DNA from: Myxococcales bacterium
Lineage (GTDB): Bacteria; Myxococcota; UBA727; JABDBI01
Assembly: GCA_023248595.1 (NCBI GenBank)
Contig: JAHFEG010000002.1
Coordinates: 51,825-115,824, forward strand
Length of the DNA: 64,000 nt
Direction: 5' to 3'
Part shown: positions 906-49,546 of the stretch, in pieces
Layout of the letters: every line of letters starts with the position of its first letter
How positions within the stretch are numbered: position 1 is the stretch's first letter
The notes under the pieces: generated by a model
What the model was told of the DNA's origin: nothing
Databases searched by the model: none
Seen by the model: the letters and a program-made list of their open reading frames with translations, nothing else
Made by a program: the position numbers and the translations under genes

Positions 906-917
906 TTTGGAGATAAC

Positions 918-1289: not shown

Positions 1290-1360
1290 GAGTCCAACGC
1301 GTTGCGTAAAATAACTCCTTCTTGCTAATATTTTAGTAAGTCAATTTCTGAGGAAATTTT

Positions 1361-2404: not shown

Positions 2405-2475
2405 TTTCAGCCTCTTGAAACACTAAGATCCAGTGCAATTAATTATCGATGTGATATTTGTCACCGAGGTGATTC

Positions 2476-5400
2476 ATGACTATTCATCTAGGAAAAGGTA
2501 ATTACATCAATGGCCAGTTTATTAATTCTGGCGAAAAAGAAATTATCAGTATCAATCCCGCTTCTTACTTTTCGCCCGTTTTTAAAAGCATAACATCAGT
2601 TGCTCATGTCGACACAGCAGTCAAATCTGCAAACCTTGCGCTGCGGTATTGGTCTTCTTTAGACACAAATGATCGCATCAGCTTTTTAATGCGCCTCAAA
2701 GAAGCTTTCGTCAAAAAAGAAAAACAGATGGCCCATGCGATTACCAGCGAAATGGGCAAAATTTTAAGTGAAAGTTTATCGGAAGCAAAAAATTTAAGTG
2801 CACGCATCGAGCTTATGGCTAACCAAGGTATCAAGCGTGTTGCAAACGAAAAACCACCGGGTATTTTAGGGGAAACACGCTACCACGCTCAAGGTGTCCT
2901 CTCTATTTTAGGACCTTATAATTTTCCTGCCCATCTTGTGAATGCCCATGTCATTCCAGCGCTGATAACCGGCAATACCGTCGTCGTTAAATTTAGCGAG
3001 ATTTGCCCATGGGTGGGAGAAATTTATGCTGAATGCATCCATGAAGCCAATTTTCCTGCTGGTGTTTTTAATTTGGTACAAGGTGGAGCAGATATTGGTA
3101 AAGCTTTAGCGAAACATCCTTTAATTCGTGGCATTTTATTTACAGGAAGTTACGCCACAGGTCGTTCTTTAGCCGAATCTGTCCTCGATGAACCACATAA
3201 AATTTTAGCTTTAGAAATGGGTGGCAAAAACATTGCCGTGGTTTTAAAAGATGCCGACCTCTACCAAGCTCTAGCAGAAATTAGCCAAGGCGCTTTTTTA
3301 ACAACTGGCCAACGATGCACAGCAACCAGCCATGTTCTGGTAGATAAAACCATCGCTAGTCGCTTTATTAATTCTCTCGTTGCCATCACCAAAAGTTTAA
3401 AACCCGGCGACCCAACACATGCAAAAACTATTTTTGGTCCCCTGGCAAGCCAAGAAGCCAGAAATCGGTTCAGTGGTCTTTTAAAAAATGCGACTACTTC
3501 TTGTGAAGTTTTAGTAAAAAGCCAAATGTTCGATGGGGGCGCTTTTGTTACCCCATCTCTTCACCTATTAAACGCTAAAAAAGCGCCTGGCTACCTCGAT
3601 ACCGAGCTTTTTGGACCAGACGTCTGCATTGAAATCATCGACGGCATTGAAGAGGCCATTGAGCGTACCAACCAAAGTGCGTATGGTTTATCCAATGCTG
3701 TTTTTACTGCAAAAAAATCGGCATTTGAACAATATTACCAACAAACACGCTCTGGTGTTTTAAATTGGAACAGAAGCACCAATGGCGCCTATGGAGAACA
3801 GCCATTTGGTGGCGTGGGTAAAAGTGGAAACCAGCGCGCAGCTGGCATCGACGCTGTTCGCTATACGACCTTTCCTGTCGCTGTAAACTATTTAGAATAT
3901 GGCCAAACGCAGTTACCTTTCAACATGGTCACTTTACTCGAAAAAGAAAAAAAGAACCTTGATATTCCTTTCTCAACACTAGTCACACGTCATGCCCTAG
4001 AAGAAATGTTGGAAAATTATCAGATTCCTATCGAAGACGTGCGTGGCGCATCCATATTGCTACCATTGCATTTCATCAAAAAGCTTTCTTTTCAAAATAA
4101 ACCAATTGATGAAATACATCTTATCGAATCATTGAAACCTTACGTTAGCCTAGAAGAAAAAAATTGGATCATTACCCTTCCTGAAGCAGAATATCTAAAC
4201 ATATTTTTAGATATCATGGATGCTTTTTTAAAAAAGTTACATAATGAAAATTTCGTCCATTTAATTCAACCTATTGCCTCTGAAATTCATATCCCAACTT
4301 CTGAAAAATTGCCGCGTTCAGCAGCAATGCTCCGTCGGCTTTATCGCAATGATTTTTTGCCCAAGGAAAAGAAAAATCCTGTTATCGACCTACGTACTTC
4401 GAAGGGCCCTTATCTAGCATCTATCGATGAGGATCCGCTGGTGATTTTTGATGCAGCCAGCCAAATTGCTTCACTGGGATTAGGCTTTCAAGCAGATCCC
4501 TATCTCAAAGCGCTAACCGAAGACAACTTAACAGCATGCCTGTTAGCCAATCAAGAAGACACGCCAGAATCTAAAATATGGATTGAAAAATATTCTCAAT
4601 TGTTGTTGCAACAAACTAGCCCAAAAATGAGCCATGTCAATTTCACGTCTGCAGGCGCAGAAGCAAATGAAAAAGCATTTGATCTTTGCCGGCTAAACGG
4701 ACCTGGTGGACGCCGAATCATTGCTTTTCAAGGTAGTTTTCATGGCCGTACATTGATGGCCTTGCAGGCAACTTATAATCCCCAAAAGCGGGCTCAGTTT
4801 GAGTTCACAGGTCACCAAGCCACCTTCATTCCCTTTCCCAAACGCCCAAATTTTGAAGAGGATCCTGAAATCACCGACGAATGGGTTGCTTGCTGGTCAA
4901 GGGCTGAGAGCCCTTACGTGCCACCTGATGACCTGTTGCTGCGATCTGAAATTCAGTCTCTCGAATGCCTTAAAAGCGAAATTGAAAAAGGAAACATTTG
5001 TGCTGTCATCATTGAACCCATGCAATGTGAAGGCGGTGACAATTATGCCACAGCTCGTTTTTTTAATGGCCTTCGTGCTTTGACGCGTGCCCTTCAAGTA
5101 CCGCTCATTTTTGACGAGGTCCAAACAGGGTTTGGCCTGCTTGGTCCTTTTTATGCTCATAGCGCATTTAAACTGCGCGATGCTCATGGCAACTTAGACG
5201 GACCCGACTGCATAACGCTTGCAAAAAAAGCACAACTCGGCGTCTGTTTATCAAATTGGCCAGATACCAGACCTGCGACAGCACATATTTCACAAATTAT
5301 GAGAGGATATTTGCAAGCCCAAGCGATACTGGACAGAAAATTGTTTTCACCTCATCTGAAGACAGAGATAGAAAAAAAAATCGGAATTTTAAAACAGAAA

Positions 5401-18579: not shown

Positions 18580-19635
18580 TTATGATTTTTTATTTTTAAG
18601 TTCATAGACAAAATTCAAAACCTCAGCGACCGCTTCGTAAAGTTCTTCAGGAATTTCCTCTTCCAAATCTAGCTTATTTAATGCTTGCGCCAAGGGCACA
18701 TTTCTTAAAATTGGAATATCGTTTTTTCTCGCAATCTCTCTGATTTTTTCCGCATTTTTGCGCAGCCCCTTCGCGATAACCATGGGAGCAGTTTTCTTTT
18801 TTTTATCATACTGAATAGCAACAGCGATATGCGCAGGATTCGTCACCACCGCATCCGCATTTTTGACACGTTGTTGGCTACCATGCATCACCAGCTCTTG
18901 CGCAAGTCTTTTGCGCTCACCTTTTAACTCAGGGTCGCCTTCTGATTGCTTGTACTCTTGCTTAATTTCTTGTTTTGTCATCATCATGCTTTTTTTAAAA
19001 ACATGCTTTTGCCAAAAATAATCGGCACCAGCCACAACTAAAAATAAAGCGGTCACGCGAACACAAATATCCTTGATGATGACTCCAATAATTCCAAGCG
19101 ACGAGAATAAATCGAGCCGCTGCATCAAAATAATATTGGGCAAAGCATTCTTAAGCGCATAATAAACAACCATTGAAACCATGGAAAATTTCACGATTTG
19201 TTTTAAGACTTCTACCAACCGTTTTACACTAAATAGTTGCTTTAAACCTTGAATCGGATTTAACTTGTCCAATTTGGGTTTTAAGGGCTCGGTCGTCAAT
19301 AAAAAACCAACTTGCATATAATTGCCAGCAAGAGCTAGAACAAAAGCTGTCACTAAAACCGGCAAAGAAACTAAAACCCAGGTTTTCAACCCTTGGTTTA
19401 AAATTTCTGCAGCAGCCAAATCTAAATCCTGACGAGAAATTGCTTTCATGCTGGCAATAATAAAATCGCTCATCTCTTTGGCAACGATTGCTAAACTACC
19501 GGCTAATGCCGCAAAAGCGCCAGCAAAAACGATTGCAGAAACAAAATCCTGACTCTTAGAGACTTGCCCCTTCTCTTTTGCTTCACGAAGTTTCTGAGGA
19601 GTAGGTTCTTCGGTTTTTTCTCCGCTTTCTGCCAC
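18580..19635 (-). CDS. sctU: Type III secretion export-apparatus switch protein SctU (YscU/FlhB family)
   Basis: The N-terminus MAESGEKTEEPTPQKLREAKEKGQVSKSQDF is canonical for YscU/FlhB. Four TM helices follow, then a C-terminal autocleavage-region motif VVTNPAHIAVAI (NPTH-type). Confidence 0.85.
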   Translation of the reverse strand: MAESGEKTEEPTPQKLREAKEKGQVSKSQDFVSAIVFAGAFAALAGSLAIVAKEMSDFIIASMKAISRQDLDLAAAEILNQGLKTWVLVSLPVLVTAFVLALAGNYMQVGFLLTTEPLKPKLDKLNPIQGLKQLFSVKRLVEVLKQIVKFSMVSMVVYYALKNALPNIILMQRLDLFSSLGIIGVIIKDICVRVTALFLVVAGADYFWQKHVFKKSMMMTKQEIKQEYKQSEGDPELKGERKRLAQELVMHGSQQRVKNADAVVTNPAHIAVAIQYDKKKKTAPMVIAKGLRKNAEKIREIARKNDIPILRNVPLAQALNKLDLEEEIPEELYEAVAEVLNFVYELKNKKS

Positions 19636-21207: not shown

Positions 21208-21777
21208 TTAAGCACGTTCAACATATTGCCCAGTGCGGGTATCAATCTTTACTTTATCGCCTTCATTTACAAACAATGGCACCTGCACCGTATAACCTGT
21301 TTGCATTTTTGCTGGCTTGGTCGCGCCACTCACAGTGTCCCCTCTAACGGCGGGAGCACATTCAGCGATTTGTAGAACAACATGGTTAGGAATTTCAATA
21401 TTCACGGCCTTGCCCTTATAAAACAAAAGCGACACCGGCATGCTTTCTACTAAAAAGTGGGCTGCGTCACCCAGCACTTTAACCGGCACTTCAAACTGAT
21501 CATACGATACTGGATCCATAAAATGAAAGATACCATCAACCATGTAAAGAAATTGAACTTCGCGTTCATTTAGATCGGGGCGTTCAACTTTGTCGCCGGA
21601 ACGAAATGTCGGGTCTGTCGTCATGCCTGTAATTAGATTCTTAAGCCGGGTGCGCACAATCGCAGCACCTTTCCCAGGCTTATGATGTTCAAACTCCACA
21701 ATCTCGTAAGGCTCATTTTGAAACATGATACGAAGCCCCCGACGAAAATCTGAAGTGGAAAACATGAAAACTCCCAA
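21208..21777 (-). CDS. efp: Elongation factor P
   Basis: The KPGKG loop (...EHHKPGKGAAIVRTRLKNLITG...) carries the modified Lys. The three-domain length is ~185 aa. The true start may be the second Met, at 21765. Confidence 0.85.
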   Translation of the reverse strand: MGVFMFSTSDFRRGLRIMFQNEPYEIVEFEHHKPGKGAAIVRTRLKNLITGMTTDPTFRSGDKVERPDLNEREVQFLYMVDGIFHFMDPVSYDQFEVPVKVLGDAAHFLVESMPVSLLFYKGKAVNIEIPNHVVLQIAECAPAVRGDTVSGATKPAKMQTGYTVQVPLFVNEGDKVKIDTRTGQYVERA

Positions 21778-21867: not shown

Positions 21868-22824
21868 TCAGTCTTGATCACAGACAACTTGGCATTTAAA
21901 ACCACGTTCTTTATCTAGAGCACCCGCAGTAAATACACGGATAATTTTGCCTGTCTGACTGTAATTGAGACCTGTAACCTGTAAAACAGCATGAAATGCA
22001 TCTTGCCAAGGAACTTTGTTCAATTGGATGCTCACTCGACCAACAATATTATTGCCAAAAACAATATTGCTTCCACTCGCTTTTGCCATAAAACGTAAAA
22101 CATTACGAAGCTCTGCATCACGAAAATCAATAGAGATTAATTTCTGGCTAAGCGGCGATGATGATTTTAAAATTTGCTTTTTCTTCACCACTTCTGGCAG
22201 TTGGCTAATCGGTGCACTATTTTGGGAAACAGGAGCAACCAAAATTGTATCAGATCTCAAAGAAGATGCAGTGAAAACAATTTGAAGTCCCAAATTGTTT
22301 TGCACAACCTGATAATTGGGAAGTGCCTGACTAAAGAAATCGATGACGACACGTGTTTTTTCTGCATGTGTCCCTATGCGAATATTTCCAAACTTGAAAC
22401 GTTGTAGCTTTTTGAGCCTCTTAGTTGAAGATACATCTAACAAATCAACAACTAAGCGCACAGGATTTTCTAAATTTTGTGTTTCAAAACGCAGGGCAGA
22501 GTTTTTCACAATTAAATTTAAAGTTACCCCAGTCTTTGTTTCGCTAGACTGAATTGCTATCAACAAATTTTTGGCTGATGAATTTCGCGAAGTAATCGGC
22601 ACCATCAAAGGCGGAGAAGGAACGGTTACCATAGGCGCAGGGGCAAGATTAGTCTGCGTATCTGGCTCTGGAGAATTGACAGGTTCATTGATTGCAAAAT
22701 TAATCGGCATAATTGGGGCTTGTTCATCAGACTGCAACAAGATCGAGCGCTGCCCAAAAGTCGAGATTGGTAGGAAAACTACAAAAGCGATTACCCAGAT
22801 ATTCACTCGCTTAATTCGATTCAC
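21868..22824 (-). CDS. PilQ N-terminal-like protein (AMIN-like + secretin-N domains) lacking the secretin beta-barrel
   Basis: It has a signal peptide and an AMIN-like segment (NPVRLVVDLLDVSS...RIGTHAEKTRVVIDF). A Secretin_N-type segment follows (ISIDFRDAELRNVLRFMAKASGSNIVFGNNIVGRVSIQLNKVPWQDAFHAVLQVTGLNYSQTGKIIRV). The ORF ends ~20 aa later, and there is no room for a secretin domain before efp. Confidence 0.55.
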   Translation of the reverse strand: MNRIKRVNIWVIAFVVFLPISTFGQRSILLQSDEQAPIMPINFAINEPVNSPEPDTQTNLAPAPMVTVPSPPLMVPITSRNSSAKNLLIAIQSSETKTGVTLNLIVKNSALRFETQNLENPVRLVVDLLDVSSTKRLKKLQRFKFGNIRIGTHAEKTRVVIDFFSQALPNYQVVQNNLGLQIVFTASSLRSDTILVAPVSQNSAPISQLPEVVKKKQILKSSSPLSQKLISIDFRDAELRNVLRFMAKASGSNIVFGNNIVGRVSIQLNKVPWQDAFHAVLQVTGLNYSQTGKIIRVFTAGALDKERGFKCQVVCDQD

Positions 22825-22835
22825 TTTAATCCCCC

Positions 22836-23441
22836 TTAGTGCACGAGCTTTAATGTGATGTAAGTGCTCTGCCCTTCTTTGATCACGATCTGATTGGACT
22901 GAACAGATTCGACACGCCCAGAATTTTTGCCAATTTGGCTTCCCACTTTTAGCGTATAGCCAACACCTGACGGATCCTCAATCAATGCTAACGCAATGCC
23001 ACCTTGCATCAGAAATCCAACATATTTGTAAGTCTCCGCATCAAAATCAAGCAAAGCCGATTCTCTTTCTTGGTGCATCTCTTCTTCGCTGGCAGAAGCT
23101 AAATAACTTGAAAATGGATCGCGAAACAGTGGTTTTTGTTCAACAGGGAGGTTTTTTTTAGAAAGATCCAAACTCGTTACCTGCTCTTTGGCAAGAACTT
23201 TAGGAGTCAATGTAACGAGCGGCAAAAACACGCTATTATTCACAATAGGTATCCGCAAAGCCGATGATTCTACAGATTGAGAAGTCAGCTTGTCTCTAAC
23301 GAGTGTTTTGCCAGAAGGAGAAAACTCTATTTTTTCGGGTAAATCAACAGTCACCACGTTTTCAACGTCAGATGCACCTTCTTTTGTACAAGACATTCCT
23401 GCTAATAATACCAAGATACCAAATGCCCTAAATAAAATCAC
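22836..23441 (-). CDS. pilP: PilP-like lipoprotein
   Basis: It has a lipobox (LLAGMSC). The C-terminal domain ...RDPFSSYL...YKYVGFLMQGGIALALIEDPSGVGYTLKVGSQIGKNSGRVESVQSNQIVIK... matches the PilP beta-domain pattern. Confidence 0.5.
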   Translation of the reverse strand: MILFRAFGILVLLAGMSCTKEGASDVENVVTVDLPEKIEFSPSGKTLVRDKLTSQSVESSALRIPIVNNSVFLPLVTLTPKVLAKEQVTSLDLSKKNLPVEQKPLFRDPFSSYLASASEEEMHQERESALLDFDAETYKYVGFLMQGGIALALIEDPSGVGYTLKVGSQIGKNSGRVESVQSNQIVIKEGQSTYITLKLVH

Positions 23442-24028
23442 GACATCTGCCCCCGATAAGCCGCTAACGTTAAAGTAATAGTAAGCATCGTATGATCTTC
23501 TGCAGAGGAGAAAACAGTTAGATGCATATTTTTGACAGTTGTCAGGCGAGACAAACCAATCAGTCCTTCCAAAAATTGCACTAAATTTTCATACTTCCCA
23601 GTTAAGGTCATCATGATGGGAATCTCAACCACTAAACCTAAAGATTGCTCTTGCTTCTCTTCAAAATTCAGAAGAACCATGTTCGCTAAATTGGCTTCGG
23701 TTGCAACTGCCTCTAAAAGATCAGAAATATCAGCGGTATTTGGAATTGCCTGCTCTGGATTTAAATTCGCCATATGAATGAGCAATTGATTCTTCAATGC
23801 ACCATATTTTTCTGGATGACTTAAATGCGCCAATAATTTTTCGCGTTTCACTAATTGAGTTAAAATTCTTTGCTTCATTTTCCATTTTTCACGCAAAAAA
23901 CCAAAATAAAAGCCCCCCCAAACAGCAGTGGTCAAAAACACTGAAACAAGAGCGATGACTACAACAGAAATGTGGGAAGAGCGCACCGATGCAACTAATG
24001 TTTTAGGCAAAACTGGTTTAGTCATCAC
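23438..24028 (-). CDS. pilO: PilO-like inner-membrane protein
   Basis: It has an N-terminal TM and a coiled coil. The sequence ...IPNTADISDLLEAVATEANLANMVLLNFE...TGKYENLVQFLEGLIGLSRLTTVKNMHL... fits PilO/GspM-type topology and motifs. Its start and stop overlap both neighbours. Confidence 0.55.
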   Translation of the reverse strand: MMTKPVLPKTLVASVRSSHISVVVIALVSVFLTTAVWGGFYFGFLREKWKMKQRILTQLVKREKLLAHLSHPEKYGALKNQLLIHMANLNPEQAIPNTADISDLLEAVATEANLANMVLLNFEEKQEQSLGLVVEIPIMMTLTGKYENLVQFLEGLIGLSRLTTVKNMHLTVFSSAEDHTMLTITLTLAAYRGQMS

Positions 24029-24515
24029 GCCCTCCTTTCAATGCGCATACCAATTTAAATTGATACACATTGCTATTTTTTATTTTTTTAGACTGCGTTG
24101 AAGTCAGACTAACAGTCGAAAACACAGGATTTTTAGACAACATACTGATAAAATCAGCTAGAATATCATTCGACACTGCATAACCATTAAGCACAACATT
24201 TTTTTCTGTCTGCAACCATTCTGTTAACCAGACTTTTTTTGGAATCGCCAAAGATACAGCAGAAAGCAATTGCTTCTCAATGCCCCTTTCTTTTTCAAGT
24301 TGCTCTATCAATTGTTCTTTTGCTTGAAGCATATCGTGACTGGAAACAGTCGAATTCATTTGCTGGCCCAGATGACTAAATTGATTAATTTCTTGCTGCG
24401 CCTGCAATACTTGGCGATTCTTATTGTCAATTTGGTGGGAAATATAAAAATAGACAGTTGTCATCGCAACAGCATTCACAATTAAGACAATTATTATAAT
24501 CAAAAAATAGCGCAC
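24018..24515 (-). CDS. pilN: PilN-like inner-membrane protein
   Basis: It has an N-terminal TM and a coiled coil. The segments ...KKVWLTEW...VLNGYAVSNDILADFISML...YQFKLVCAL fit the PilN pattern. Confidence 0.55.
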   Translation of the reverse strand: MRYFLIIIIVLIVNAVAMTTVYFYISHQIDNKNRQVLQAQQEINQFSHLGQQMNSTVSSHDMLQAKEQLIEQLEKERGIEKQLLSAVSLAIPKKVWLTEWLQTEKNVVLNGYAVSNDILADFISMLSKNPVFSTVSLTSTQSKKIKNSNVYQFKLVCALKGGRDD

Positions 24516-24575
24516 AGGGATATTCTCATTATGTTTATAAATTAAGCCTAATAATTTGCTTACATTACAACCATT

Positions 24576-25445
24576 CTACCAGTTTCCTAAAAAGATGGCT
24601 AATTCTTGGCTCATCTTAGAAATTTGGTGTCCCCATAATGCCACTTCTAGGCCTGCTAAAGCAAGAAACGGTCCAAAAAAAATAGCTTGCGCTGGTGGCT
24701 GCCAACCATCTTTTGTAGGCGTTATCTGCGGCTTAATAATTAAAAAAGCAATAATCCCCTGAATACATGCCAATAAAATAACATACGGCAATCCCAAGAT
24801 ACCCACGTAGGCGCCTATCCCTGCCAAAAGCCAAGGGTCACCCCATCCCATCGCAAATTCATCTGACTTTAACCGACCGAGGCGTCTTAAAACCCATGTA
24901 GAAGCGATTAAAAATGCAGCAAAGAATGAGAAACCAAAGACGCTTCCTAAAACGCGTGCTCCAAACTGTACAGATTGATAAGAAGAATCGTTTTGCCAGC
25001 TACTTATTCCACCAAAAACAAGGCCCGTCACAATTAAAAATACAGGTAACGATAAAGGAATTAACCAGGTATCTATGTCAATGAAAGCAATCGCTATTAA
25101 GATAGCAATGAAAATAAATAATTCTAAAGTCACCCACTGGAAACCGAATTGAAGCCACAATGCTAAAGCAAAACCGCCCATTACCAATTCAATAAAAGGA
25201 AGGCGTCCAGATATAGATGTTTTACAGTAACGACATCGACCCCCCAAAACAAACCAGGAAACGATGGGAATTAAATCGTAATAAGCGATAGAGCATTTGC
25301 AACTCATACAATGTGATCGCGGCCATAAAATTGACATCCCTACGAGCGGAAAACGCAAAATAACCACGCCTAAGAAACTTCCAACAATTGTACCAATGAT
25401 AAAGAAAAGGAAGACAAGCCCAATTTCAAAAAACGAAAAAACCAT
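24576..25445 (-). CDS. pilD: Prepilin peptidase (A24 family)
   Basis: It has the N-terminal Zn tetracysteine motif (CMSCKCSIAYYDLIPIVSWFVLGGRCRYCK), and the polytopic A24 peptidase body with conserved Asp-containing loops. Confidence 0.8.
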   Translation of the reverse strand: MVFSFFEIGLVFLFFIIGTIVGSFLGVVILRFPLVGMSILWPRSHCMSCKCSIAYYDLIPIVSWFVLGGRCRYCKTSISGRLPFIELVMGGFALALWLQFGFQWVTLELFIFIAILIAIAFIDIDTWLIPLSLPVFLIVTGLVFGGISSWQNDSSYQSVQFGARVLGSVFGFSFFAAFLIASTWVLRRLGRLKSDEFAMGWGDPWLLAGIGAYVGILGLPYVILLACIQGIIAFLIIKPQITPTKDGWQPPAQAIFFGPFLALAGLEVALWGHQISKMSQELAIFLGNW

Positions 25446-40489: not shown

Positions 40490-42010
40490 CTACCAATCCA
40501 GAACACGTTCAATATTAAGCGCTTGCTCTGCTGCAAATGCGACATTCATCAAAGTTGACTCTTCAAAAGGTCGTCCAATAATTTGCGTGCTGAGCGGTAA
40601 TCCATGCTTGGAAAAACCTGTTAAAAATGACATCCCAGGAAGACCCGCAAGATTAACGCTCACAGTAAAAATATCGTTCAAGTACATTTGCATCGGATCA
40701 TCAGTTTTTTCGCCAATACGAAATGCAGGTGTCGGCGTAGTTGGACAAACAATCACATCTACTTCTTGAAACGCCTTTTTAAAATCATCAGCAAAAAGAC
40801 GTCGCACTTTTTGTGCACGCAAATAATACGCATCATAATAGCCAGCGCTTAAGACATAAGTTCCCAGCAAAATACGCCTTTTGACTTCTGGGCCAAACAG
40901 CTGTCCACGGGTTTCTTCGTACATAGACAATAAACCGCTTCCATCTCCTAAACGTGGCCCATAACGCACACCATCATAACGCGACAAATTAGAAGATGCT
41001 TCGGCTGTGGCAATCACATAATAAGTTGCTATTCCATGAGGCGTATTTGGAAGAGAAACTTCCTTTATTTCAGCACCAAGAATACGCAAAGCTTCAATCG
41101 ATTTTTGCACAGACTCTCTAACTTCTTCATCCAAACCTTCGACAAAATATTCGCGCGGAATGCCAATCTTAAGGCCTTTCACGTCGCCCGTCAAAGCATG
41201 CAAGTAATTAGGAACTTCATTCTTGACAGATGTAGAATCGAGCGCATCATGCCCTGCTATCGCCTGCAACATCATCGCTGTGCCACTGACATCTTTGGCA
41301 AAGGGCCCGACTTGATCCAGTGAACTGGCATAAGCAACAACACCCTGACGAGACACCCGACCGTAAGTCGGTTTAAGACCAGCAACACCACAAAATGCAG
41401 CTGGTTGCCGAATCGATCCACCTGTATCCGTCCCAAGCGTCCCAAAAACAAAGCCAGCGGCAACCGCTGCTGCAGACCCTCCTGAAGACCCTCCTGGTGA
41501 ACGAGAAAAGTCCCAAGGATTTTTACATACTTTGTAGGCACTTGTTTCTGTCGATGAACCCATGGCAAATTCATCTTGATTTAATTTGCCCATCATAATG
41601 GCACCAGCGGTTTTTAATTTCGTCACAACCGTTGCATCACAAGGAGGTTTATATCCTTCTAAAATTTTACTACCAGCAGTCGTGGCCACCCCTTTTGTCA
41701 GCATCATATCTTTGACTGCAACAGGTATACCATCTAAAAGCCCTAATGTTTTCTTCGCTTTTCGACGTGTATCTGAGGCATCAGCGGCCAGCAATGCTTC
41801 TTCTTCTGTTAAGCAAAGAAAAGCACCAAGATTGGCATCATGTTGACGAATGCGCTTGAAGCAAGATTCGGTTAATTCACGACTCGAGATTTCTCCCGAT
41901 AAAAGACGTTTGCTTGCTTCATGCAACGTCCACGTTTTAATTTTCGTTTCGCTCATGCTTTTTAATTCCTTACTCAATAATCTTAGGCACTTTAATGAGC
42001 CCATCTTCAT
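40490..42010 (-). CDS. gatA: Glu-tRNA(Gln) amidotransferase subunit A
   Basis: The amidase signature is GGSSGGSAAAVAAG, and the Ser-cisSer-Lys triad context is conserved. An alternative start lies at 41956. Confidence 0.9.
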   Translation of the reverse strand: MKMGSLKCLRLLSKELKSMSETKIKTWTLHEASKRLLSGEISSRELTESCFKRIRQHDANLGAFLCLTEEEALLAADASDTRRKAKKTLGLLDGIPVAVKDMMLTKGVATTAGSKILEGYKPPCDATVVTKLKTAGAIMMGKLNQDEFAMGSSTETSAYKVCKNPWDFSRSPGGSSGGSAAAVAAGFVFGTLGTDTGGSIRQPAAFCGVAGLKPTYGRVSRQGVVAYASSLDQVGPFAKDVSGTAMMLQAIAGHDALDSTSVKNEVPNYLHALTGDVKGLKIGIPREYFVEGLDEEVRESVQKSIEALRILGAEIKEVSLPNTPHGIATYYVIATAEASSNLSRYDGVRYGPRLGDGSGLLSMYEETRGQLFGPEVKRRILLGTYVLSAGYYDAYYLRAQKVRRLFADDFKKAFQEVDVIVCPTTPTPAFRIGEKTDDPMQMYLNDIFTVSVNLAGLPGMSFLTGFSKHGLPLSTQIIGRPFEESTLMNVAFAAEQALNIERVLDW

Positions 42011-42254
42011 AACCTGCAGAACCTATTAACCCCTGGCGACCTACGCTGGGCATTTGCTCGTCTGCTCGAAGACTTAAGTCTAACGGGACTGCATGTGTCA
42101 TAGGCTCTACACCTTCAATATCTACTTTTTGTAGACTATCCACATATTTAGTTATCTCACCTAAATGATGCTGCATGTGTTTTACTTCTTCATCGTTCAG
42201 AGATAATCTTGCCAATCGCGCCAATTTTCGAACTTCTGCTATTTCAAAAACCAT
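41970..42254 (-). CDS. gatC: Glu-tRNA(Gln) amidotransferase subunit C
   Basis: 94 aa; MVFEIAEVRKLARLARLSLNDEEV... is a typical GatC opening. It lies directly 5' of gatA. Confidence 0.7.
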   Translation of the reverse strand: MVFEIAEVRKLARLARLSLNDEEVKHMQHHLGEITKYVDSLQKVDIEGVEPMTHAVPLDLSLRADEQMPSVGRQGLIGSAGYEDGLIKVPKIIE

Positions 42255-42318
42255 TATTTTTCCTATAAGATGCGGTATCCTGTACGATGAAAATCACCAT
42301 GAAAAGGGGGTTGCCTTA

Positions 42319-42837
42319 ATGAACTTAAACCTTTTGTTATATCTTTTCGCCACATTGACGTTGAGTGGCGCGGTCGGTGTCGTATTTTTTCGTCACTTTT
42401 TATATGGCATTTTATCTTTACTGCTAACTCTGCTTAGTTTATGCGGGCTTCTATACATGATAGGAGCAGAAATTCTAAGCGCCATGTTATTTTGGCATCT
42501 AGGGATAACGAGTATATTAGTTCTTTTGCACACCTTTTTTCTGATTGGTCCACAAAATAGCCATAAATCTCCCAGACGTCTCGTCCCCGGCAAATTCTTT
42601 TTTGTAGTTGCAGTGCTTTACACAGCCACCTTTCTTATCGGCATCCCTTCTTTTCATGTTTTTAAAATTAATCCCGCACCTATTGATATCAAGGTTCTTT
42701 ATCATCTTTTCCAAACAGAACATGCTTTTGCCATTTTCTTGCTTCTTTCCCTAACCCCATTTATTCTCATCAGTAGCCTATTGCTCATCAGACAAGATAA
42801 AAACAGAAACAAAGAAATAAACAGCGTTGGACACTAG
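42319..42837 (+). CDS. NuoJ/ND6-like small polytopic membrane protein
   Basis: AAGGGGG lies 8 nt before the ATG. The pattern MNLNLLLYLFATLTLSGAVGVVFF...GAEILSAMLFW resembles NuoJ (ND6) helices 1-3. It sits immediately upstream of the NuoK-like gene. Confidence 0.45.
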   Translation: MNLNLLLYLFATLTLSGAVGVVFFRHFLYGILSLLLTLLSLCGLLYMIGAEILSAMLFWHLGITSILVLLHTFFLIGPQNSHKSPRRLVPGKFFFVVAVLYTATFLIGIPSFHVFKINPAPIDIKVLYHLFQTEHAFAIFLLLSLTPFILISSLLLIRQDKNRNKEINSVGH

Positions 42838-42886
42838 CACTTCTTTTTGGTTAAAACTAAAATGAAACTTAAAGCAGGGCTTTAAA

Positions 42887-43186
42887 ATGCCATTCAATCT
42901 TCTCTTCATTTTATCTGGCGCATTAATGATTCTAGGCATTTGTGGTGCCTTGTGTCGTCGGAATTTACTTGCCATTTCCTTATGTTTGCATGTCGCCTTC
43001 CTGGGCATCATTCTTTTGATCGCGACTTGTTTTGTGGAACATGGTGACATCAAAAATATTTCGTTGGCGCTTATTTTAATTGCGATCTTCTCGCTGCAAA
43101 TGATGTTTACAGGCGGCCTCGTTATTTTTATATATCGCAATCAGGGCACTCTTCATATTGATGAAATGAGGCAACTACGTGGTTAA
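42887..43186 (+). CDS. nuoK: NuoK/ND4L-like 3-TM subunit
   Basis: 99 aa. ...CRRNLLAISLCLHVAFLGIILL...ALILIAIFSLQMMFTGGLVIFIYRNQGTLHIDEMRQLRG aligns with NuoK (RRNLL...LE.M...AAE...GLAL...R...L.ID...EMRG), but the conserved acidic residues are altered. Confidence 0.65.
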   Translation: MPFNLLFILSGALMILGICGALCRRNLLAISLCLHVAFLGIILLIATCFVEHGDIKNISLALILIAIFSLQMMFTGGLVIFIYRNQGTLHIDEMRQLRG

Positions 43187-43192
43187 ACGCTT

Positions 43193-44452
43193 ATGACAAC
43201 GTCAATCAATTTATGGGCCATGATAGGATCTTACTTATTAGCAGCCATCTTGTCGCCCATCACTGTTCGACTTCTAAAAACATTGAAAAACAAATTTTTT
43301 ATTATTTCTATTTGCATACTTAATCTGATCTTATGTCTCCAAATTAGCGCCAGTGCTTATTGGAATTCTGTTTCCCTTTCTGCTCTTCAAACAACATGGC
43401 CACCCATTTCTTTTGACTTAAGCTCCTTTGCGCCTTGGAGTTACTTCGGCGCTGCTTTATCGTTGGGCGGGGGGCTGGCCATTTTTTTTATTTCTAGGCA
43501 AGATTTTCATAAAACCTCTGTTTTATTCTTAATTGAATTAGCCTTTTTAGAAACGCTTCTATTTTCAAATCACATCATCATCACTGCTACTTTGACTGTT
43601 TTGTCCGGACTGCTCAGCAGCATTCCATTTTGTTTTAGTCATCAAGCAGACAAACAAGTAAACACCCTCACATCTATTTTATTATGGCATCGCTTTAGTG
43701 ATTTGCTTCTTTTATTCAGCATTGCTTCTTGGAAAATGAATATTTCAATTGACTGGTGCGCCTCACTTTTTCTCATCGGCATTTTCATACGAACTTCTCC
43801 TTTAATGCTCGCACGACCTCTTCAGCTTAATTTAACTGCCATCTCGCCTGTTGCACGCACTTTTTATTTCTTTTCAATGGGCCTTGGCGGCGCTGTTCTT
43901 TTAATGAAAAGCGATTTGTTTTTTTTGATCCCTCAACACATAAGAATGTTTTTTATTTTACTGTATATTTTGTCGGCTATTTTCGCTTTTATTCGTATCT
44001 TCTTAAATCAAAATAACCTATTGATTCGCGCTGACATTGCATCTTTATGGATAGCGCTTTTCTATACCGCCATCTTAGCAGATGCATCTCACATCGCCTG
44101 TTTGTTTTTTATAAGCGCATGCTTGTTCTTTCCATTTTTATTTAATTGGGGGTTACACATAAACCCAACAATCGTCAAAGAAGAACCCTTATGGAAATTG
44201 CTCATTTTATCAGGCTGGAGAATAGACAGTTTGATAGAAATCATTTTTTTAAAAACAACGTGGTGCTTTGCTTATTTCACTAAAGAGATTGTCTCTGTAT
44301 TCATTTATATTCTATGGATACAAATTCCACAAATCAGCTTCAGTTTTGTGCAGATACTTTTAAGAATTTTAAATGCAGGCGGTGCTCAAAAAGCCATTAC
44401 GGTTGTTATATTAGGCTTAATTTTATTTCTTATTCACTACGTCGGAATTTAA
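43193..44452 (+). CDS. Polytopic membrane protein in the NuoL/MrpA-like position of the cluster (highly diverged)
   Basis: 419 aa with 11-12 predicted TM helices. It starts 6 nt after the NuoK-like stop. No WLPDA-type motif is recognisable. Confidence 0.35.
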   Translation: MTTSINLWAMIGSYLLAAILSPITVRLLKTLKNKFFIISICILNLILCLQISASAYWNSVSLSALQTTWPPISFDLSSFAPWSYFGAALSLGGGLAIFFISRQDFHKTSVLFLIELAFLETLLFSNHIIITATLTVLSGLLSSIPFCFSHQADKQVNTLTSILLWHRFSDLLLLFSIASWKMNISIDWCASLFLIGIFIRTSPLMLARPLQLNLTAISPVARTFYFFSMGLGGAVLLMKSDLFFLIPQHIRMFFILLYILSAIFAFIRIFLNQNNLLIRADIASLWIALFYTAILADASHIACLFFISACLFFPFLFNWGLHINPTIVKEEPLWKLLILSGWRIDSLIEIIFLKTTWCFAYFTKEIVSVFIYILWIQIPQISFSFVQILLRILNAGGAQKAITVVILGLILFLIHYVGI

Positions 44453-44454
44453 GT

Positions 44455-45840
44455 ATGACAATATCAGACAGCCAATTACTGCTCTTTTTGATCACTATCC
44501 CTGTTTTTTCAGCCATTTTTGTTTCGTGTGTTCCTCATTTTGATATGTCATCTGTAAGGCAAATTGCCACAACAATCCTAATTGTCTGGCTCGCACTTCT
44601 TCTTAAATGCGGTCATACACTTTTCCACCAAGTCACGCAAATTTCCTGGCATTTTAATGTTTCCTTATGGCTTGATAATAATATACTTAGTCTATCTCTG
44701 GGGCAACTTCAGTTGGTTTTATTACTCGCTCTTTGGTGCGCATTATTTAGCCTATTTTTTTTGAACAAATATACCATCGAAAACAATGGGCTATCTTTTA
44801 CCGTTATGACTTTGCTGCTGCTTGCTTTATCAACGCTAGCTATTTTATCATCCACCCCTGCCATCTCTCTTGTAACGGCAAGTTTAAGTTTATTTCTATT
44901 TCTTTACTTAGTCGCTCGCTTTGGTGGCACTCAAAAAGGTCAAGCGATCCTCCTCAGTAGTTTATTTTTTTTAGCCGTAGACCTTTGCTCTATTTCTGCC
45001 CTCTTTTTGCCAAAAACCATTTGGCAGTCACAAGGCTTTTATCTTTATTGGATAGCCCTCACACCTGCTCTTGCGCGCCTATTAATTCCATTTTTTGCAC
45101 CATTTTCTCGCATACTGTTCAATAATTGTTCTATTGCAATCATTATTTTGTACATTGCTTTTATGGTGCCCACTGGTGCAGCCTTACTATTTCAGCTCAA
45201 AAGCATACTTCTACTTTATCAGCCCATCACGATTTTAAACCCTATCCTCTCTATTTTGGTTTTTGGCAGTGTTCTTTTTAGTGCGTTCTGGGCGATTTCA
45301 GAAAAAGATCCTAGACAACTGGGCCTGACATTGCTTGTCTTCTATAATGCTATTTTCATCAGTTTTGCCCTCGTTCCTATCGATGGATACTTAACGAAAC
45401 TATCAACCTATCTGCTTTTTTGCACAATCATCTGTGCGTCTTTTACGCTGCTTGTCGGACAATTGCTTTTTGTTAGGCATGGCCCCCAATTAAATAACAT
45501 GACCATCAACCACCTCTGGCTGGCTAGCTTGGCAATTTGGTTTCCTTTGCCTGGCTTTGGAATGGGCACACCCTTCTGGTTAGGTTATACGCATTTATTG
45601 ACACCTACTTTTCTGTCTCCTGCTCTTCACGTCCTTTTTTGGTTAATCGTTTTTTTATTATTAACCACAGCCTTGGTTCAAAATTATTTTCGCCATACAG
45701 AACCTCAAAATGCAATCAGCAGTATCGCCGAATTGCGATCACGCACTCTTCCTTCTTTTAAATACGTTTGGACGACCTTCACTATCGTCTTGCTTTTGTG
45801 TTTTGTTAGCTCAACCTACTTCTTGAATGCAGGTGTCTAA
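44455..45840 (+). CDS. Polytopic membrane protein in the NuoM-like position of the cluster (highly diverged)
   Basis: About 460 aa counted from the first ATG after the upstream stop, with 13-14 predicted TM helices and no conserved antiporter motif that I recognise. Confidence 0.35.
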   Translation: MTISDSQLLLFLITIPVFSAIFVSCVPHFDMSSVRQIATTILIVWLALLLKCGHTLFHQVTQISWHFNVSLWLDNNILSLSLGQLQLVLLLALWCALFSLFFLNKYTIENNGLSFTVMTLLLLALSTLAILSSTPAISLVTASLSLFLFLYLVARFGGTQKGQAILLSSLFFLAVDLCSISALFLPKTIWQSQGFYLYWIALTPALARLLIPFFAPFSRILFNNCSIAIIILYIAFMVPTGAALLFQLKSILLLYQPITILNPILSILVFGSVLFSAFWAISEKDPRQLGLTLLVFYNAIFISFALVPIDGYLTKLSTYLLFCTIICASFTLLVGQLLFVRHGPQLNNMTINHLWLASLAIWFPLPGFGMGTPFWLGYTHLLTPTFLSPALHVLFWLIVFLLLTTALVQNYFRHTEPQNAISSIAELRSRTLPSFKYVWTTFTIVLLLCFVSSTYFLNAGV

Positions 45841-47273
45841 TGTTAAATGTACCAACCCCTATATTGGTGGCATCGATAACATTGCTACTCAGCGCTATTT
45901 TATGCCTATTACTAGAGGTTGCTGGCGTCAAAGAAGGATTTAAAAAAACAGGAAATAAACCACACATCGTTCTACTTGTTTTTTTATCAGTTATCAGTAT
46001 TAGTATCTACATCATAACGAGCCCTACTTCAGAGTTTAATCTCATATTTGCTTTCGATTTAACAGCAAAATGGGGCATTTTTTTTTCTTGCTTAATGACT
46101 CTTTTTTGCCTGGTCTTAAGCGTGTTAGAATCTCGCAGTTTACGTCAAGAACGAGGTGAAAAATACGCGCTTTTATTAGTCGCGTTAATGCTTACTATCG
46201 TCATATGCATGACAAAAGATATCTTATATTTTATGATATGCGTCAGTCTATGGACTTTGATTATGATTGCGCTTTGCGCTTTTGATAATTATCGTCGTTT
46301 AGGCTCTGAAGCAGCAGCCAAACTTTTCGTAAAAGGCAATTTTTTTCTTATTGCCATGGCTCTCGCAATTGCTTTTTCCTATGCTTGCTCTGGTTCAACT
46401 CAATTTGAACTCATTGCCAATGCAATAAAAGATCCTTCAAATGCCGTCATGGCAAAAATAGCTTGGTCATTTATTTGGATTTTAGTTCTTTCATTTTTCG
46501 GCATTGCTCCCTTTTTCTGGTTTCATGTCGATTATTTAGATGGCGCATCTTCCTTCCCTTCAACAGTTTTTACCTTTGGAAGTTTTATACCTGGCAGCGT
46601 TGTTCTGCTACGTATGATTGAAATTAGTCAAATGACTGATGCGAGCCGGCATGCACTTTGGGATTTGCTTTGGTTTTTTGCTGCACTTTCAATTTTAATT
46701 CCTGGCTTCATGGCGATTGATCAAAGGCGAATCGCCCGTATGTCTGTTTATTTATTCATGCTACAACCTGGACTGTGGCTCACATTGGCTCTATCAATTC
46801 CTACTTTAATCTCGAAAAGCCCTGTTGTTTTTTTCTTGTTTCTCACCAATGTTGCCGTTGCCATTCCCGGTGTTATATTAGGTTTGAATTTTTTAAAAAT
46901 CCCTTCCCACTTAGAGATGACCTGGGAAGATTATGCAGGTGCTGGCCGTAAGCATCCCTTCATTGTCACAGCTTGGCTCATTGCTTTTTCCTCGCTGGCG
47001 GGTATTCCAGGAACATTGGGATTTTATATTCGCTTGAAAGCCTTACAAGATTTGTTTTTAAAGGAAGAATTTTTAGGCGGCGCCCTTATCGTCCTAAGCA
47101 TCATCATTAGCGCAGCACCAGTTGCGAGATTAGCTGTCTTTTTGTTTGCGAAACCTGCACATCATGAATTCAGTCGGCAACATCCAACAAAACACACTGT
47201 TCTTCTTTTTTTATGCGCTGCGGTAATCATCTTCAGCAGCATGTTACCTCAAGCTTTTCTGCAATTTATCTAA
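45840..47273 (+). CDS. NuoN-like antiporter-type membrane subunit (diverged)
   Basis: The segment FGIAPFFWFHVDYLDGASSFPSTVFTFGSFIPG resembles the NuoN/MrpD core (VPFHxWxPDVYEGAPTPVSA). It has ~14 TM helices, and its ATG overlaps the upstream stop. Confidence 0.45.
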   Translation: MLNVPTPILVASITLLLSAILCLLLEVAGVKEGFKKTGNKPHIVLLVFLSVISISIYIITSPTSEFNLIFAFDLTAKWGIFFSCLMTLFCLVLSVLESRSLRQERGEKYALLLVALMLTIVICMTKDILYFMICVSLWTLIMIALCAFDNYRRLGSEAAAKLFVKGNFFLIAMALAIAFSYACSGSTQFELIANAIKDPSNAVMAKIAWSFIWILVLSFFGIAPFFWFHVDYLDGASSFPSTVFTFGSFIPGSVVLLRMIEISQMTDASRHALWDLLWFFAALSILIPGFMAIDQRRIARMSVYLFMLQPGLWLTLALSIPTLISKSPVVFFLFLTNVAVAIPGVILGLNFLKIPSHLEMTWEDYAGAGRKHPFIVTAWLIAFSSLAGIPGTLGFYIRLKALQDLFLKEEFLGGALIVLSIIISAAPVARLAVFLFAKPAHHEFSRQHPTKHTVLLFLCAAVIIFSSMLPQAFLQFI

Positions 47274-48907
47274 AATTTAGTCACACCATGATTCAAGCGC
47301 ATTAACAAAGCCTCTCCATGGCCTTTTCCTAAAATCAACTTCACTTTATCTTCATAAACAAAACTTGTCGTTGTTTCGATATGGGGTACATGATGACAAG
47401 AACGACAAACACTTTCAGGAACTTCACGCTTAATCAATTTTTTATCACCGCTGACTGCATGCAAACTTCCAGGACCATGACAAGATTCGCACTGCACATT
47501 TTTACGAAAATCGATTTCATTCACTTTGCAATAGCCACCAGGTTCCATAAATCCAATACTGTGACATCCAATACAACTTCGATCGGATTCTTTATGCTTC
47601 TTCTCTAAGGTTGACCATGCAATCGCATGGCCTGATCTTTGTTTAATCGATAAACCTTTTTCGTCTTTCGCATTCATTTCCCAAACAGAATTTTCCCAAA
47701 CATTAACAGCCGCTTGATGGCAATTCTTGCAGGTTTGTACGCCAACATAAGTCGGCATTCCAGCCTTTACTGATTCGCAATTAACTTTTTCTTCACACTT
47801 TGCAACTAAACGGGGTAACGATTTTTCGTAAGCAAGGCGTTTTTTTTGTACCTCAAGCATCGGCGGTATTTCCTTACGAAGCGCAATCGTTCTCACCGAG
47901 AAATAAGGCCCTTGGATTTCACCGAAATTGCTTTGCATTTTTTGGGCTTTCGCTAATTCTGTCTCTATATTTTTGAGTTGTTTCTCTAAAAAAGAACGCC
48001 GCTCTAATGTTGCGTCTTTGATGTGCCTTTTTAAGGATTGCGCACGATTGAGCAATAGACGAGAACGTCTTTCACTTTTTTCTTTTCTATCATCTATCTG
48101 AAAATGGCTCGTTTTTTTTAAAGAAATATTCTTAAACTCAACGACACCTAAATATTGACCTTGCATTCCCGCAGATATGAACCAAGGCCCCTGCTCCTCC
48201 AATAATTCCGGCAATAAAGGGACTTCACTCATTTCTTGTCCTAAAATGACCACGTCAACATCTGATACACTTTGAAACCAGGTTTTCACAATTGATGTCG
48301 GTGCCTGCGCCACTGCCACAATAATATCAGCCCCCTCATTTTTTAATCGCTGTATTTCTTTTATGAAATCGGGTTTTAACAATGCTGCCTTTTCAAGTTC
48401 TGAGCCCACTCCTATTAAACCCAATTTTACCCCTGATTGGTTCAAAATTTGTCCTTGAAACGGAGCGTAATTCAAAATCGGGATTTGATGCTTCTGTAAA
48501 AAAGAACGATAAAATTGATCGCCGCGGGTTAAATCAAAAGGTCCAGGTATAGTCCCTGCAACTTTTAAGTTTTGGTAGGTTGAAAGTAGAACATCAAGCC
48601 TGGCTTCATCTTGACACAAATCAACGTCGGCCTTCTTTTCAGCAGAATCAAAAAAAAGATTGCCGGCGTCTATAAATAATAAGCGATTTTGAAAAGATTT
48701 TTGGAACTCGTCGATAATAAAGGCTAATCTGTCCAATCCGCCTAAAGGATCAGCGGTACAACCACAAGGTTCAATATAACCTCGCACATTCGTTGTAAAA
48801 AGCAGCGCAAAGGTGTCTTTGTTTTCTTTTGCACACTGACAATTGCTTAAAAAAAGCAAAAACAACATCCGTAAAAATTTGCACTGCAGATAAAATGCCC
48901 TCATCAA
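47270..48907 (-). CDS. Tetraheme c-type cytochrome with N-terminal degenerate metallophosphatase/5'-nucleotidase-like domain; probable lipoprotein
   Basis: Four CxxCH motifs lie within ~120 aa (CKNCH, CIGCH, CESCH, CRSCH). The N-terminal region LLFTTNVRGYIEP...IDAGNLFF resembles calcineurin-like motifs I-III, but the metal-ligand Asp/His are substituted. The N-terminal signal has a Cys (LFLSNCQC). Confidence 0.6.
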   Translation of the reverse strand: MMRAFYLQCKFLRMLFLLFLSNCQCAKENKDTFALLFTTNVRGYIEPCGCTADPLGGLDRLAFIIDEFQKSFQNRLLFIDAGNLFFDSAEKKADVDLCQDEARLDVLLSTYQNLKVAGTIPGPFDLTRGDQFYRSFLQKHQIPILNYAPFQGQILNQSGVKLGLIGVGSELEKAALLKPDFIKEIQRLKNEGADIIVAVAQAPTSIVKTWFQSVSDVDVVILGQEMSEVPLLPELLEEQGPWFISAGMQGQYLGVVEFKNISLKKTSHFQIDDRKEKSERRSRLLLNRAQSLKRHIKDATLERRSFLEKQLKNIETELAKAQKMQSNFGEIQGPYFSVRTIALRKEIPPMLEVQKKRLAYEKSLPRLVAKCEEKVNCESVKAGMPTYVGVQTCKNCHQAAVNVWENSVWEMNAKDEKGLSIKQRSGHAIAWSTLEKKHKESDRSCIGCHSIGFMEPGGYCKVNEIDFRKNVQCESCHGPGSLHAVSGDKKLIKREVPESVCRSCHHVPHIETTTSFVYEDKVKLILGKGHGEALLMRLNHGVTKF

Positions 48908-48910: not shown

Positions 48911-49546
48911 TTATCCTATGTCTTCAACTTCCTTTTCTTCATCAAAGCGGCGTCCTAAAAGCTCAGCGGCCAAAGGCAAATCCAGCTCTGAATCTAACCT
49001 ACCTCTATAAGCTTGAAATCCGCAATAAATACAAGAAAAATAACCATCACCACTCGAAGCCCTGGCCAATACAACTCCCATACTATGGCATTTGGGGCAT
49101 TCACTTCTAGAATATTGTCGTTTTTTAGGACCGCCAGCGATCGGACCACCGTCTTTCTTATAGTTTAAGGATATTACAGCTGGCTTTTTTTTAGAAAGAG
49201 TTGTGCGCCCATCTATATTAGCTGCATTTTTCACTGCTAAAGTAACCCCGGCTTCCTTCGTGCTTTTGTTTTTATTATTTTTCTTAAATTGCATACGATA
49301 ACAATCAATTGCTTCTTTTATTTTATCTTCCATCCTTGAAACTTCTTCCAATGTTTTCCAGCTTTCTAAAACGGTTTCTTCCAAGGTCTCGCGTGCTGTC
49401 ATTTCTTCCCGCAGAAGCATGCCTGGTTTTGCCTGAATGCGGTAGCCTGTCAATATTTTGGCAACAGTTGTTTTTGATAGTTTAGTATAAGGACGCTTAG
49501 TAAGAGTCAGAATTTCATGCAATAACGAATCCCTGGCCGTCATCAT
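48911..49546 (-). CDS. Hypothetical protein with C-terminal 4-Cys zinc ribbon
   Basis: CPKCHSMG...CIYCGF lies near the C-terminus. The rest is charged and helical. Confidence 0.4.
   Translation of the reverse strand: MMTARDSLLHEILTLTKRPYTKLSKTTVAKILTGYRIQAKPGMLLREEMTARETLEETVLESWKTLEEVSRMEDKIKEAIDCYRMQFKKNNKNKSTKEAGVTLAVKNAANIDGRTTLSKKKPAVISLNYKKDGGPIAGGPKKRQYSRSECPKCHSMGVVLARASSGDGYFSCIYCGFQAYRGRLDSELDLPLAAELLGRRFDEEKEVEDIG

Follow-up and report, generated by a model that had tools for sequence, protein, structure and literature searches.

A five-gene nuoJ-K-L-M-N-like operon

We analyzed a 64 kb stretch of DNA from a Myxococcales bacterium (the window, a term that denotes this whole stretch) and, within it, a module of five consecutive and tightly packed genes, g1 to g5, that occupy positions 42319-47273 of the + strand in the order nuoJ-K-L-M-N. 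The first gene encodes a NuoJ/ND6-like protein (g1, 42319-42837, 172 amino acids [aa]) and is followed by genes for a NuoK/ND4L-like protein (g2, 42887-43186, 99 aa) and for three larger proteins with an antiporter fold: a truncated NuoL/ND5-like protein (g3, 43193-44452, 419 aa), a NuoM/ND4-like protein (g4, 44455-45840, 461 aa) and a NuoN/ND2-like protein (g5, 45840-47273, 477 aa). The spacing decreases along the module, from 49 nt between g1 and g2 to 6 nt between g2 and g3 and 2 nt between g3 and g4, while g4 and g5 share 1 nt. The start of g4 was taken as 44455—the list of open reading frames (ORFs) has 44314—in agreement with the gene calls in related genomes. A Shine-Dalgarno-like run, AAAAGGGGG, lies 8-9 nt 5' of the g1 ATG, and the intergenic region that separates g1 from the divergent gatC gene (42255-42318, read on the + strand) is the presumed promoter site of the operon; a promoter is inferred there, as a sigma-70 consensus scan of 42255-42318 gave no match, and a promoter and terminator scan showed no enrichment relative to shuffled sequences. 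The original prediction, drawn from the sequence before any database search, had described five consecutive genes in nuoJKLMN order, and the ORFs lie exactly where it had placed them.

The same gatC / J-K-L-M-N layout was found in eight further loci from metagenome-assembled genomes (MAGs) or metagenomes—L001, L003, L005, L008, L009, L012, L015 and L013, the last being partial and without its upstream end. A comparison of synteny in relatives had been proposed at the outset; these loci and the window are called the clade below.

Assignment of the five proteins to Nuo families

Three of the five proteins can be placed by sequence. The g1 product scores 29.5 bits against Pfam Oxidored_q3, under the gathering score of 33.2, and a g1 profile built from eight clade members matches NdhG/NuoJ chains of the PDB over its full length (residues 4-162, E = 4.6e-6). 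Conservation is lowest for this protein among the five, with no invariant column among the 8 clade members. The g2 product exceeds the cut-off of Pfam Oxidored_q2 (40.9 bits vs 26.1), is also matched by the NuoK model NF004320, and its profile finds PDB NuoK at 8e-9; it keeps both the RR motif of transmembrane helix (TM) 1 and the C-terminal IDE..R.LRG motif. For g5, NuoN models give all the best matches, at scores that fall far short of the trusted cut-offs (TIGR01770, 117 bits vs 332.6); PF00361 matches at 44 bits, the g5 profile finds PDB NuoN at 5e-24, and an hhalign comparison with a NuoN family reached a probability of 100% (E = 2.8e-40). The alignment between g5 and NuoN is free of gaps and anchored by the canonical motifs GE.Y.L, PF..W..D.Y.GA, Q..IKR and G.P...GF, which g5 keeps as GE.YAL, PF..F..DY.DGA, LDQRRIARM and GIPGTLGF, and the NuoN/MrpD-like core motif that had drawn attention to this protein, APFFWFHVDYLDGASS, is present.

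Neither g3 nor g4 matches anything in Pfam, NCBIfam or the PDB sequences even at E<=10, each finds only 5-6 homologues among 5.8 billion database proteins, and hhalign comparisons of their small profiles were non-significant. When the profile of g4 was enlarged, it aligned with the NuoM family at a probability of 92.2% (E = 6e-7, positions 4-463 to 1-471), against 8% for NuoN and 1% for NuoL, and it is on these enlarged clade and NuoM profiles that g4 is assigned to NuoM. The AlphaFold2 (AF2) model of g4 had a predicted local distance difference test score (pLDDT) of 64 and a predicted template-modeling score (pTM) of 0.69, and it includes a beta-hairpin between TM2 and TM3. Searched against the PDB with Foldseek, the model retrieved mostly NuoM, ND4 and NdhD chains at the top of the list (MrpD at rank 5), with E between 7e-7 and 8e-6 and a TM-score of ~0.6, followed by MrpD and NuoL chains.

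The case of g3 is different, since its comparison with NuoL by hhalign stayed non-significant even with enlarged profiles (P 0.07), and a full HMMER search with the g3 profile across 1.84 billion representatives returned 9 proteins, all of them clade members and none a bridge to NuoL. Modeled fold and C-terminal architecture alone, without a significant sequence match, support the view that g3 is NuoL-like. The protein is ~200 residues shorter than NuoL (419 vs 613 aa in E. coli), which corresponds to roughly one five-helix repeat, and it retains the NuoL TM6 R..D motif (R167, D170). Its C-terminal part (aa 332-416; 44186-44440 on the + strand) is modeled by AF2 as a 62-residue helix (332-393) followed by a terminal TM helix (398-416), at a pLDDT below 50. 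In complex I, a long C-terminal helix with an anchor sets NuoL apart from NuoM and NuoN, and g3 is predicted to be set apart likewise; the pair probably corresponds to lateral helix HL and the TM16 anchor of NuoL. The junction between helix and anchor carries the motif [HN]-N/A-G-x-x-Q-[KR], like the ENGYLRWY of E. coli NuoL, and the hydrophobic moment of the long helix is unremarkable. Moreover, this C-terminal part is the best-conserved portion of g3 across distant members, with the distant matches P0134 and P0136-P0138 aligning only at positions 198-398 or 328-398.

A further observation concerns the NuoL-like gene of L005 (8086-8685, the same as in L006 and L014), a distant relative, which encodes 199 aa only, yet keeps the long C-terminal helix and anchor as well as motifs of TM6-TM8, including HR.SD of TM6 and a TM7-like G..LR. 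The core of L is in the course of being lost—419 aa in the window, 199 aa in L005—with the helix and anchor persisting, and, as far as these sequences go, the antiporter core of L seems dispensable while the helical 'strap' stays. We assign the g3 and g4 families, hitherto 'hypothetical proteins', to NuoL and NuoM ancestry. The original prediction had named the NuoJ- and NuoK-like products, which the Pfam and PDB profile matches bear out, and had set L and M in brackets, a caution that the absence of sequence matches to both proteins justifies.

Replacement of the charged relay residues

We then compared the residues that form the buried charged relay of complex I. Both membrane glutamates of NuoK are replaced in g2 of the window (E36 by H, E72 by Q) and in all 8 NuoK-like proteins of the clade, where H, Q or W stands at E36 and Q, F, L or I at E72. 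In g5 of the window, the substitutions are E133 to S, K217 to F, H224 to F, K247 to F, K295 to A and K395 to R. Across the clade, three of these positions have changed in 8/8 members (E133 to S/T/L/I, K217 to F/L and K247 to F/L/A), while the remaining three keep the original residue in one or two members: H224 is F, S or C but H in two members, K295 is A, S, G or Q but K in one, and K395 is R but K in one. The NuoN-like protein of L015 retains H224, K295 and K395. By comparison, E133, K217, K247 and K395 are kept in 18/18 reference NuoN sequences. Both K247 and K395 are essential to E. coli NuoN, where the mutants K247A and K395A have almost no activity left, and tolerance of E133A depends on compensation by NuoK E72 (PMC13073174); in the clade, both E133 and this backup have been lost. 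Three other charged residues, E154, K158 and D229, are retained in the NuoN-like proteins of the clade.

For g4, the positions equivalent to E144, K234, K265, H322, H348 and E407 are all uncharged in the window. Across the clade, E144 is replaced by S/N/H/F, K234 by L/I/M/T, K265 by P/S/L, H322 by Y/F and H348 by C/S/T/A, and E407 is variable; these positions, read from a remote alignment, are thus uncharged save for an occasional His or Asp in single members. The conserved charges in the predicted helix cores of g4 are R35, K51, E109 and D176 only, with 0/4 at canonical relay positions. For g3, the residue map comes from a non-significant remote alignment in which several L positions fall in gaps: E144 is replaced by V/I/L/S, an Arg (R200) occupies the position of the broken-helix Lys, and the TM12 Lys/Glu is absent or Arg. 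E144 and K229 of NuoL have been described as universally conserved (PMC4938563).

The residues found at the former relay sites differ among members, so that no new conserved chemistry has arisen there. The motifs that the clade does conserve correspond to canonical structural motifs—loops, helix breaks, the NuoK termini, and the helix and anchor of L. The suspicion that conserved charged residues were degraded and the NuoK acidic residues altered therefore held up, and the loss is more thorough than could be seen when it was first voiced.

Selection, distribution and genomic neighborhood

The module is under purifying selection, with ratios of nonsynonymous to synonymous substitution rates (dN/dS) of 0.07-0.25 for g1-g5 compared with 0.05-0.12 for GatA, GatC, PEPCK and HIT. 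In each full-length locus, the five ORFs have stayed intact, at protein identities to the window that fall to 25-38% (g4 and g5, most distant loci). The five genes diverge faster than their housekeeping neighbors: identity to L008 is 64-66% for g3 and g4 and 85-87% for GatA and PEPCK. A genome-wide compositional artefact was considered as the source of this divergence and rejected, since the DabB protein of the same genome, ~9 kb upstream, is a conventional PF00662 and PF00361 match; the divergence of the module is therefore not genome-wide.

We looked for partner genes in the window, in the 10 kb upstream of it and in the sequence retrieved around each of the eight related loci. Within the 64 kb window, neither Pfam (30 ORFs of >=150 aa in the first 36 kb) nor phmmer (E. 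coli and other Nuo proteins against 364 open frames) detected any of nuoA-I. The gene list of the contig carrying the first genes of the window showed no nuo genes in the 10 kb upstream, where DabA-DabB, a SulP transporter and glycine-cleavage genes lie, and nuoA-I were likewise missing from the stretches around the related loci. As a control, ordinary 11-gene nuoA-N operons from the same metagenome scan were recognised readily. Hydrogenase, Fpo and formate-dehydrogenase genes gave no Pfam match in the window or in the fetched related loci. The claim that the module lacks nuoA-I, hydrogenase and formate-dehydrogenase partners thus extends from the window to the upstream 10 kb and to the stretches at the eight loci.

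The family is rare: among 185,579 species-representative genomes, g4 homologs occur in one, 'Myxococcales bacterium CH-Jul18-58'. Other CH-Jul18 MAGs are described as originating from the hypolimnion of Lake Constance, from sampling in July 2018 at a depth of 200 m (PMC8547001), and, from its name prefix, we infer a deep-lake origin for CH-Jul18-58 as well. Full-text searches of the literature brought up no account of a nuoJKLMN module that stands alone or is charge-less.

On its upstream side, the module is bounded by the divergent gatC gene (41970-42254, - strand, PF02686), which lies outside the module and neighbors it at all clade loci; gatA (40490-42010, - strand, PF01425 Amidase) comes next, and a HIT-family gene and PEPCK lie beyond. 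On the downstream side, a convergent gene (47270-48907, - strand, 545 aa) overlaps the g5 stop by 4 nt and encodes a fusion of an UshA-like metallophosphoesterase with a cytochrome c554-type haem domain. Its C-terminal, multi-haem part matches PF13435 (4e-11), and NF041198, 'UshA-like (seleno)protein', scores 224.5 bits, below its cut-off of 275. This fusion gene lies downstream of the module in the window, L001, L005 and L009 and not in L003. The flanks are thus those first proposed—gatCA upstream and, on the downstream side, a convergent cytochrome gene that is now recognised as the fusion. Next to it, at 48911-49546 (- strand), we observed a gene for a conserved 211-aa protein without a confident family match but with a C-terminal, zinc-ribbon-like CPKC...CIYC motif, syntenic with the fusion gene in L001, L005 and L009. 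We also noted that the AT skew at 42000-48000 (-0.19 to -0.22) is markedly negative relative to the rest of the window, as expected from the T-rich codons for the hydrophobic residues of + strand membrane proteins; the skew is a compositional footprint of g1-g5 and no separate feature.

Other genes in the window

Several genes away from the module deserve mention. A + strand gene at 1361-2404 encodes a prokaryotic glutamate-receptor-like channel, in which SBP_bac_3 is interrupted by a Lig_chan/Ion_trans_2 pore. It is followed at 2476-7428 (+) by a 1650-aa ORF that fuses an aldehyde dehydrogenase (PF00171, 353 bits) to a class-III aminotransferase, with an AAT-family acyltransferase and a second class-III aminotransferase downstream—an unusual fusion or cluster. 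A lysine-2,3-aminomutase-like radical SAM gene (EpmB-like; 13679-14761, -) and the gene for EF-P (21208-21777, -) share one neighborhood. In addition, a pilN-pilO-pilP-secretin cluster with a prepilin peptidase lies at 21868-25445 (-) and flhB at 18580-19635; with these pil genes and flhB, the organism appears motile and piliated.

Outside the window, genes for DabA (PF10070, 919 aa) and DabB (PF00662 and PF00361, 639 aa) adjoin that of the SulP transporter ~5-10 kb upstream, on an 83 kb contig that carries the first genes of the window (ENA sample ERZ27296333, locus coordinates 335-6578). This arrangement suggests a DAB-type inorganic-carbon uptake system.

A proposed structural role for the module and alternative explanations

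We tentatively favor a reading in which g1-g5 form a vertically inherited operon of diverged NuoJ, NuoK, truncated NuoL, NuoM and NuoN orthologues, the products of which may serve as a non-pumping, stand-alone structural platform in the inner membrane. The five proteins most likely still assemble into a complex-I-type arm, in which J and K would form one end and N, M and L would come next in this order, and the long C-terminal helix of L would run back along M and N, pinned by the last TM helix. With the buried Glu/Lys/His relay replaced by hydrophobic or uncharged residues, the assembly would be a 'pseudo-antiporter' that performs no canonical proton pumping; as the proton-relay residues are gone, the arm, though conserved, probably pumps no longer. 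The combination of a kept fold, kept assembly elements and kept gene order with lost catalytic residues and purifying selection is the signature of a pseudo-enzyme. Such an arm may have been retained independently of a peripheral arm, as suggested by the loss of the E-channel glutamates, the fast divergence of NuoJ and the absence of nuoA-I from the sequence examined. In complex I, NuoJ faces NuoH and NuoA, and a g1 protein without an invariant column would fit the loss of this partner.

Several points weigh against a structural platform. A peripheral arm may be encoded elsewhere in the genome, as the absence of nuoA-I holds for the window, the 10 kb upstream and the stretches at the eight loci, and the assembly of an arm is deduced from homology and from low-confidence AF2 monomers (pLDDT 58 and 64), the models of g3 and g4 being built on 5-7 sequences. 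The residue maps of g3 and g4 derive from remote alignments. Charged residues persist in N (R395, E154, K158, D229), L (R167, D170, R200), M (D176, R208, R219) and K (His36), and could support an unconventional path. Finally, ~1,600 codons are a costly investment for a mere scaffold, and the partner that it would hold is so far hypothetical.

A more doubtful extension of this idea is that the clade lacks any peripheral arm, so that a free-standing 'dead' arm was recruited to a new, non-ion-pumping job. Its task might be to organise the inner membrane or to bend it, to act as a scaffold for other envelope or respiratory complexes, or to handle a hydrophobic substrate in channels that once carried protons and are now apolar. 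If this were true, the complex I/Mrp antiporter module would have its first pseudo-enzyme version here.

Somewhat unlikely, in our estimation, is a split complex I, in which nuoA-I sit elsewhere in the genome, g1-g5 are the sole J-N copies, and the whole works as an NADH:quinone oxidoreductase that is by nature uncoupled or weakly coupled, with the arm mainly as a membrane anchor. Split nuo clusters do occur in bacteria, the 3' half of nuo operons has exactly the order of g1-g5, and the top HMM matches are to Nuo and not to Mrp. An E. coli deltaNuoN strain retains partial NADH oxidase activity (PMC13073174), so a defective arm need not stop the peripheral module from working. However, with the E-channel glutamates of NuoK and the relay of N, M and L lost, no coupling to the quinone site could be transmitted, and NuoJ, the expected contact of NuoH and NuoA, is the protein that diverges fastest. 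Moreover, nuoA-I are absent within 74 kb here and in the stretches around the eight related loci, and an uncoupled enzyme of 13-14 subunits would give no gain over a single-subunit NDH-2. Judged by the residues read here, an 'ordinary split complex I' would be ruled out even if nuoA-I sit elsewhere.

We regard it as unlikely that the module acts as a partner-less cation/proton antiporter or another ion transporter by way of non-canonical polar residues. The original prediction had offered a repurposed antiporter-like machine, and several features are in line with it: L, M and N keep the antiporter fold, the J-K-L-M-N set parallels MrpA/C/D (MrpC being NuoK-like), charged residues persist in N, L and M as well as at His36 of K, and purifying selection implies some function. 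Against it, the TM5 Glu, TM7 Lys and TM8 Lys/His have given way to F, L, S, P or similar residues in the three large subunits, both NuoK glutamates are replaced, and the TM12 Lys/Glu is altered, with the Lys of N changed to Arg, a poor proton carrier. The replacements vary among members and establish no new conserved chemistry, L is short by ~200 residues and in L005 lacks most of its core, MrpE, F and G are absent, and Mrp HMM scores fall far under the Nuo scores. What survives of the earlier interpretation is a diverged nuoJ-K-L-M-N module with no neighboring partners and a loss of charge; the antiporter role finds no support.

It is highly improbable that g1-g5 are non-functional, still decaying remnants of a lost complex I: the lower identity of g3 and g4 to L008 relative to their neighbors, the missing catalytic residues and the shrinking L-like gene would fit decay, but the ORFs have stayed intact in all full-length loci despite the divergence to 25-38% identity, the genes have kept their translational coupling, and conservation of the structural motifs is strong. 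On dN/dS and ORF integrity, pseudogene decay was rejected.

The reading of g1-g5 as a structural platform bears on a wider question. In research on complex I and Mrp, the buried Lys/Glu/His chain of NuoK, L, M and N is treated as a defining and universally conserved feature. A five-subunit arm kept under purifying selection without this relay is a natural experiment that separates the value of fold and assembly from that of the proton relay. A free-standing arm would mean that a selectable relic without a bioenergetic role can outlast complex I, and an arm that still docks to a peripheral one would make for a complex I uncoupled by nature.

Comparison with known systems

We compared the module with the systems in which antiporter-like subunits occur. 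The DAB system resembles it in having a PF00361 protein outside complex I, but DAB consists of a single antiporter-like subunit together with DabA. Membership was rejected, as DabA is not linked to g1-g5 and a separate DabA-DabB pair lies upstream. Complexes of the group 4 [NiFe] hydrogenase type (MBH, MBS, FHL, Ech and Fpo) share antiporter-like and NuoK-like subunits with the module, and MbhH/MbsH and MbhG/MbsG chains are among its PDB matches. These complexes keep the charged relay, whereas the module has neither the relay nor adjacent redox subunits, and an assignment to group 4 hydrogenases, FHL or Fpo was rejected because no hydrogenase, FpoF or formate dehydrogenase genes lie adjacent.

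Mrp (Mnh/Sha/Pha) antiporters offer a closer parallel, being likewise membrane complexes without a redox module, with a NuoL-like MrpA, a NuoM/N-like MrpD and a NuoK-like MrpC. Mrp systems, however, have two large subunits and a mrpA-G set of seven (or six) genes, whereas the module has three large subunits and five genes. No MrpE, F or G match reached a curated cut-off in the module, and MrpB is absent as well; the faint match of g2 to Na+/H+ antiporter subunit G (E 0.29) scored 11.5 bits against a cut-off of 97. The conserved Glu (TM5) and Lys (TM7) of MrpA and MrpD—the equivalents of the relay residues, as listed in PMC13073174—are not kept in the module, and g5 scores 117 bits with NuoN vs 33 bits with MrpD. 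Membership in Mrp was rejected on the incomplete gene set, the missing Glu/Lys pairs and the higher Nuo scores.

The comparison with complex I itself brings out both a common origin and a departure from it. Complex I is built with a Q-module and NuoH/NuoA encoded alongside the arm (nuoA, B, C, D, H and I), with or without the N-module (nuoE, F and G), none of which accompany the module in the sequence examined, and the L and M subunits of the module are unrecognisable to Pfam and NCBIfam. The charged relay of complex I—NuoK E36/E72 and, in L, M and N, the TM5 Glu, TM7 Lys, TM8 Lys/His and TM12 Lys/Glu—is not maintained in the module, which at the TM12 position has Arg in N (Lys in L015), a variable residue in M, and Arg or no counterpart in L. 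On the other hand, g1-g5 comprise all five subunit types of the complex I membrane arm in their canonical order, with Nuo/ND proteins as best profile and fold matches, and the two share the beta-hairpin, the helix-break motifs, and the RR and C-terminal motifs of NuoK. By ancestry, as read from these sequences, the module is a complex I (Nuo) membrane arm and not a member of the Mrp family.

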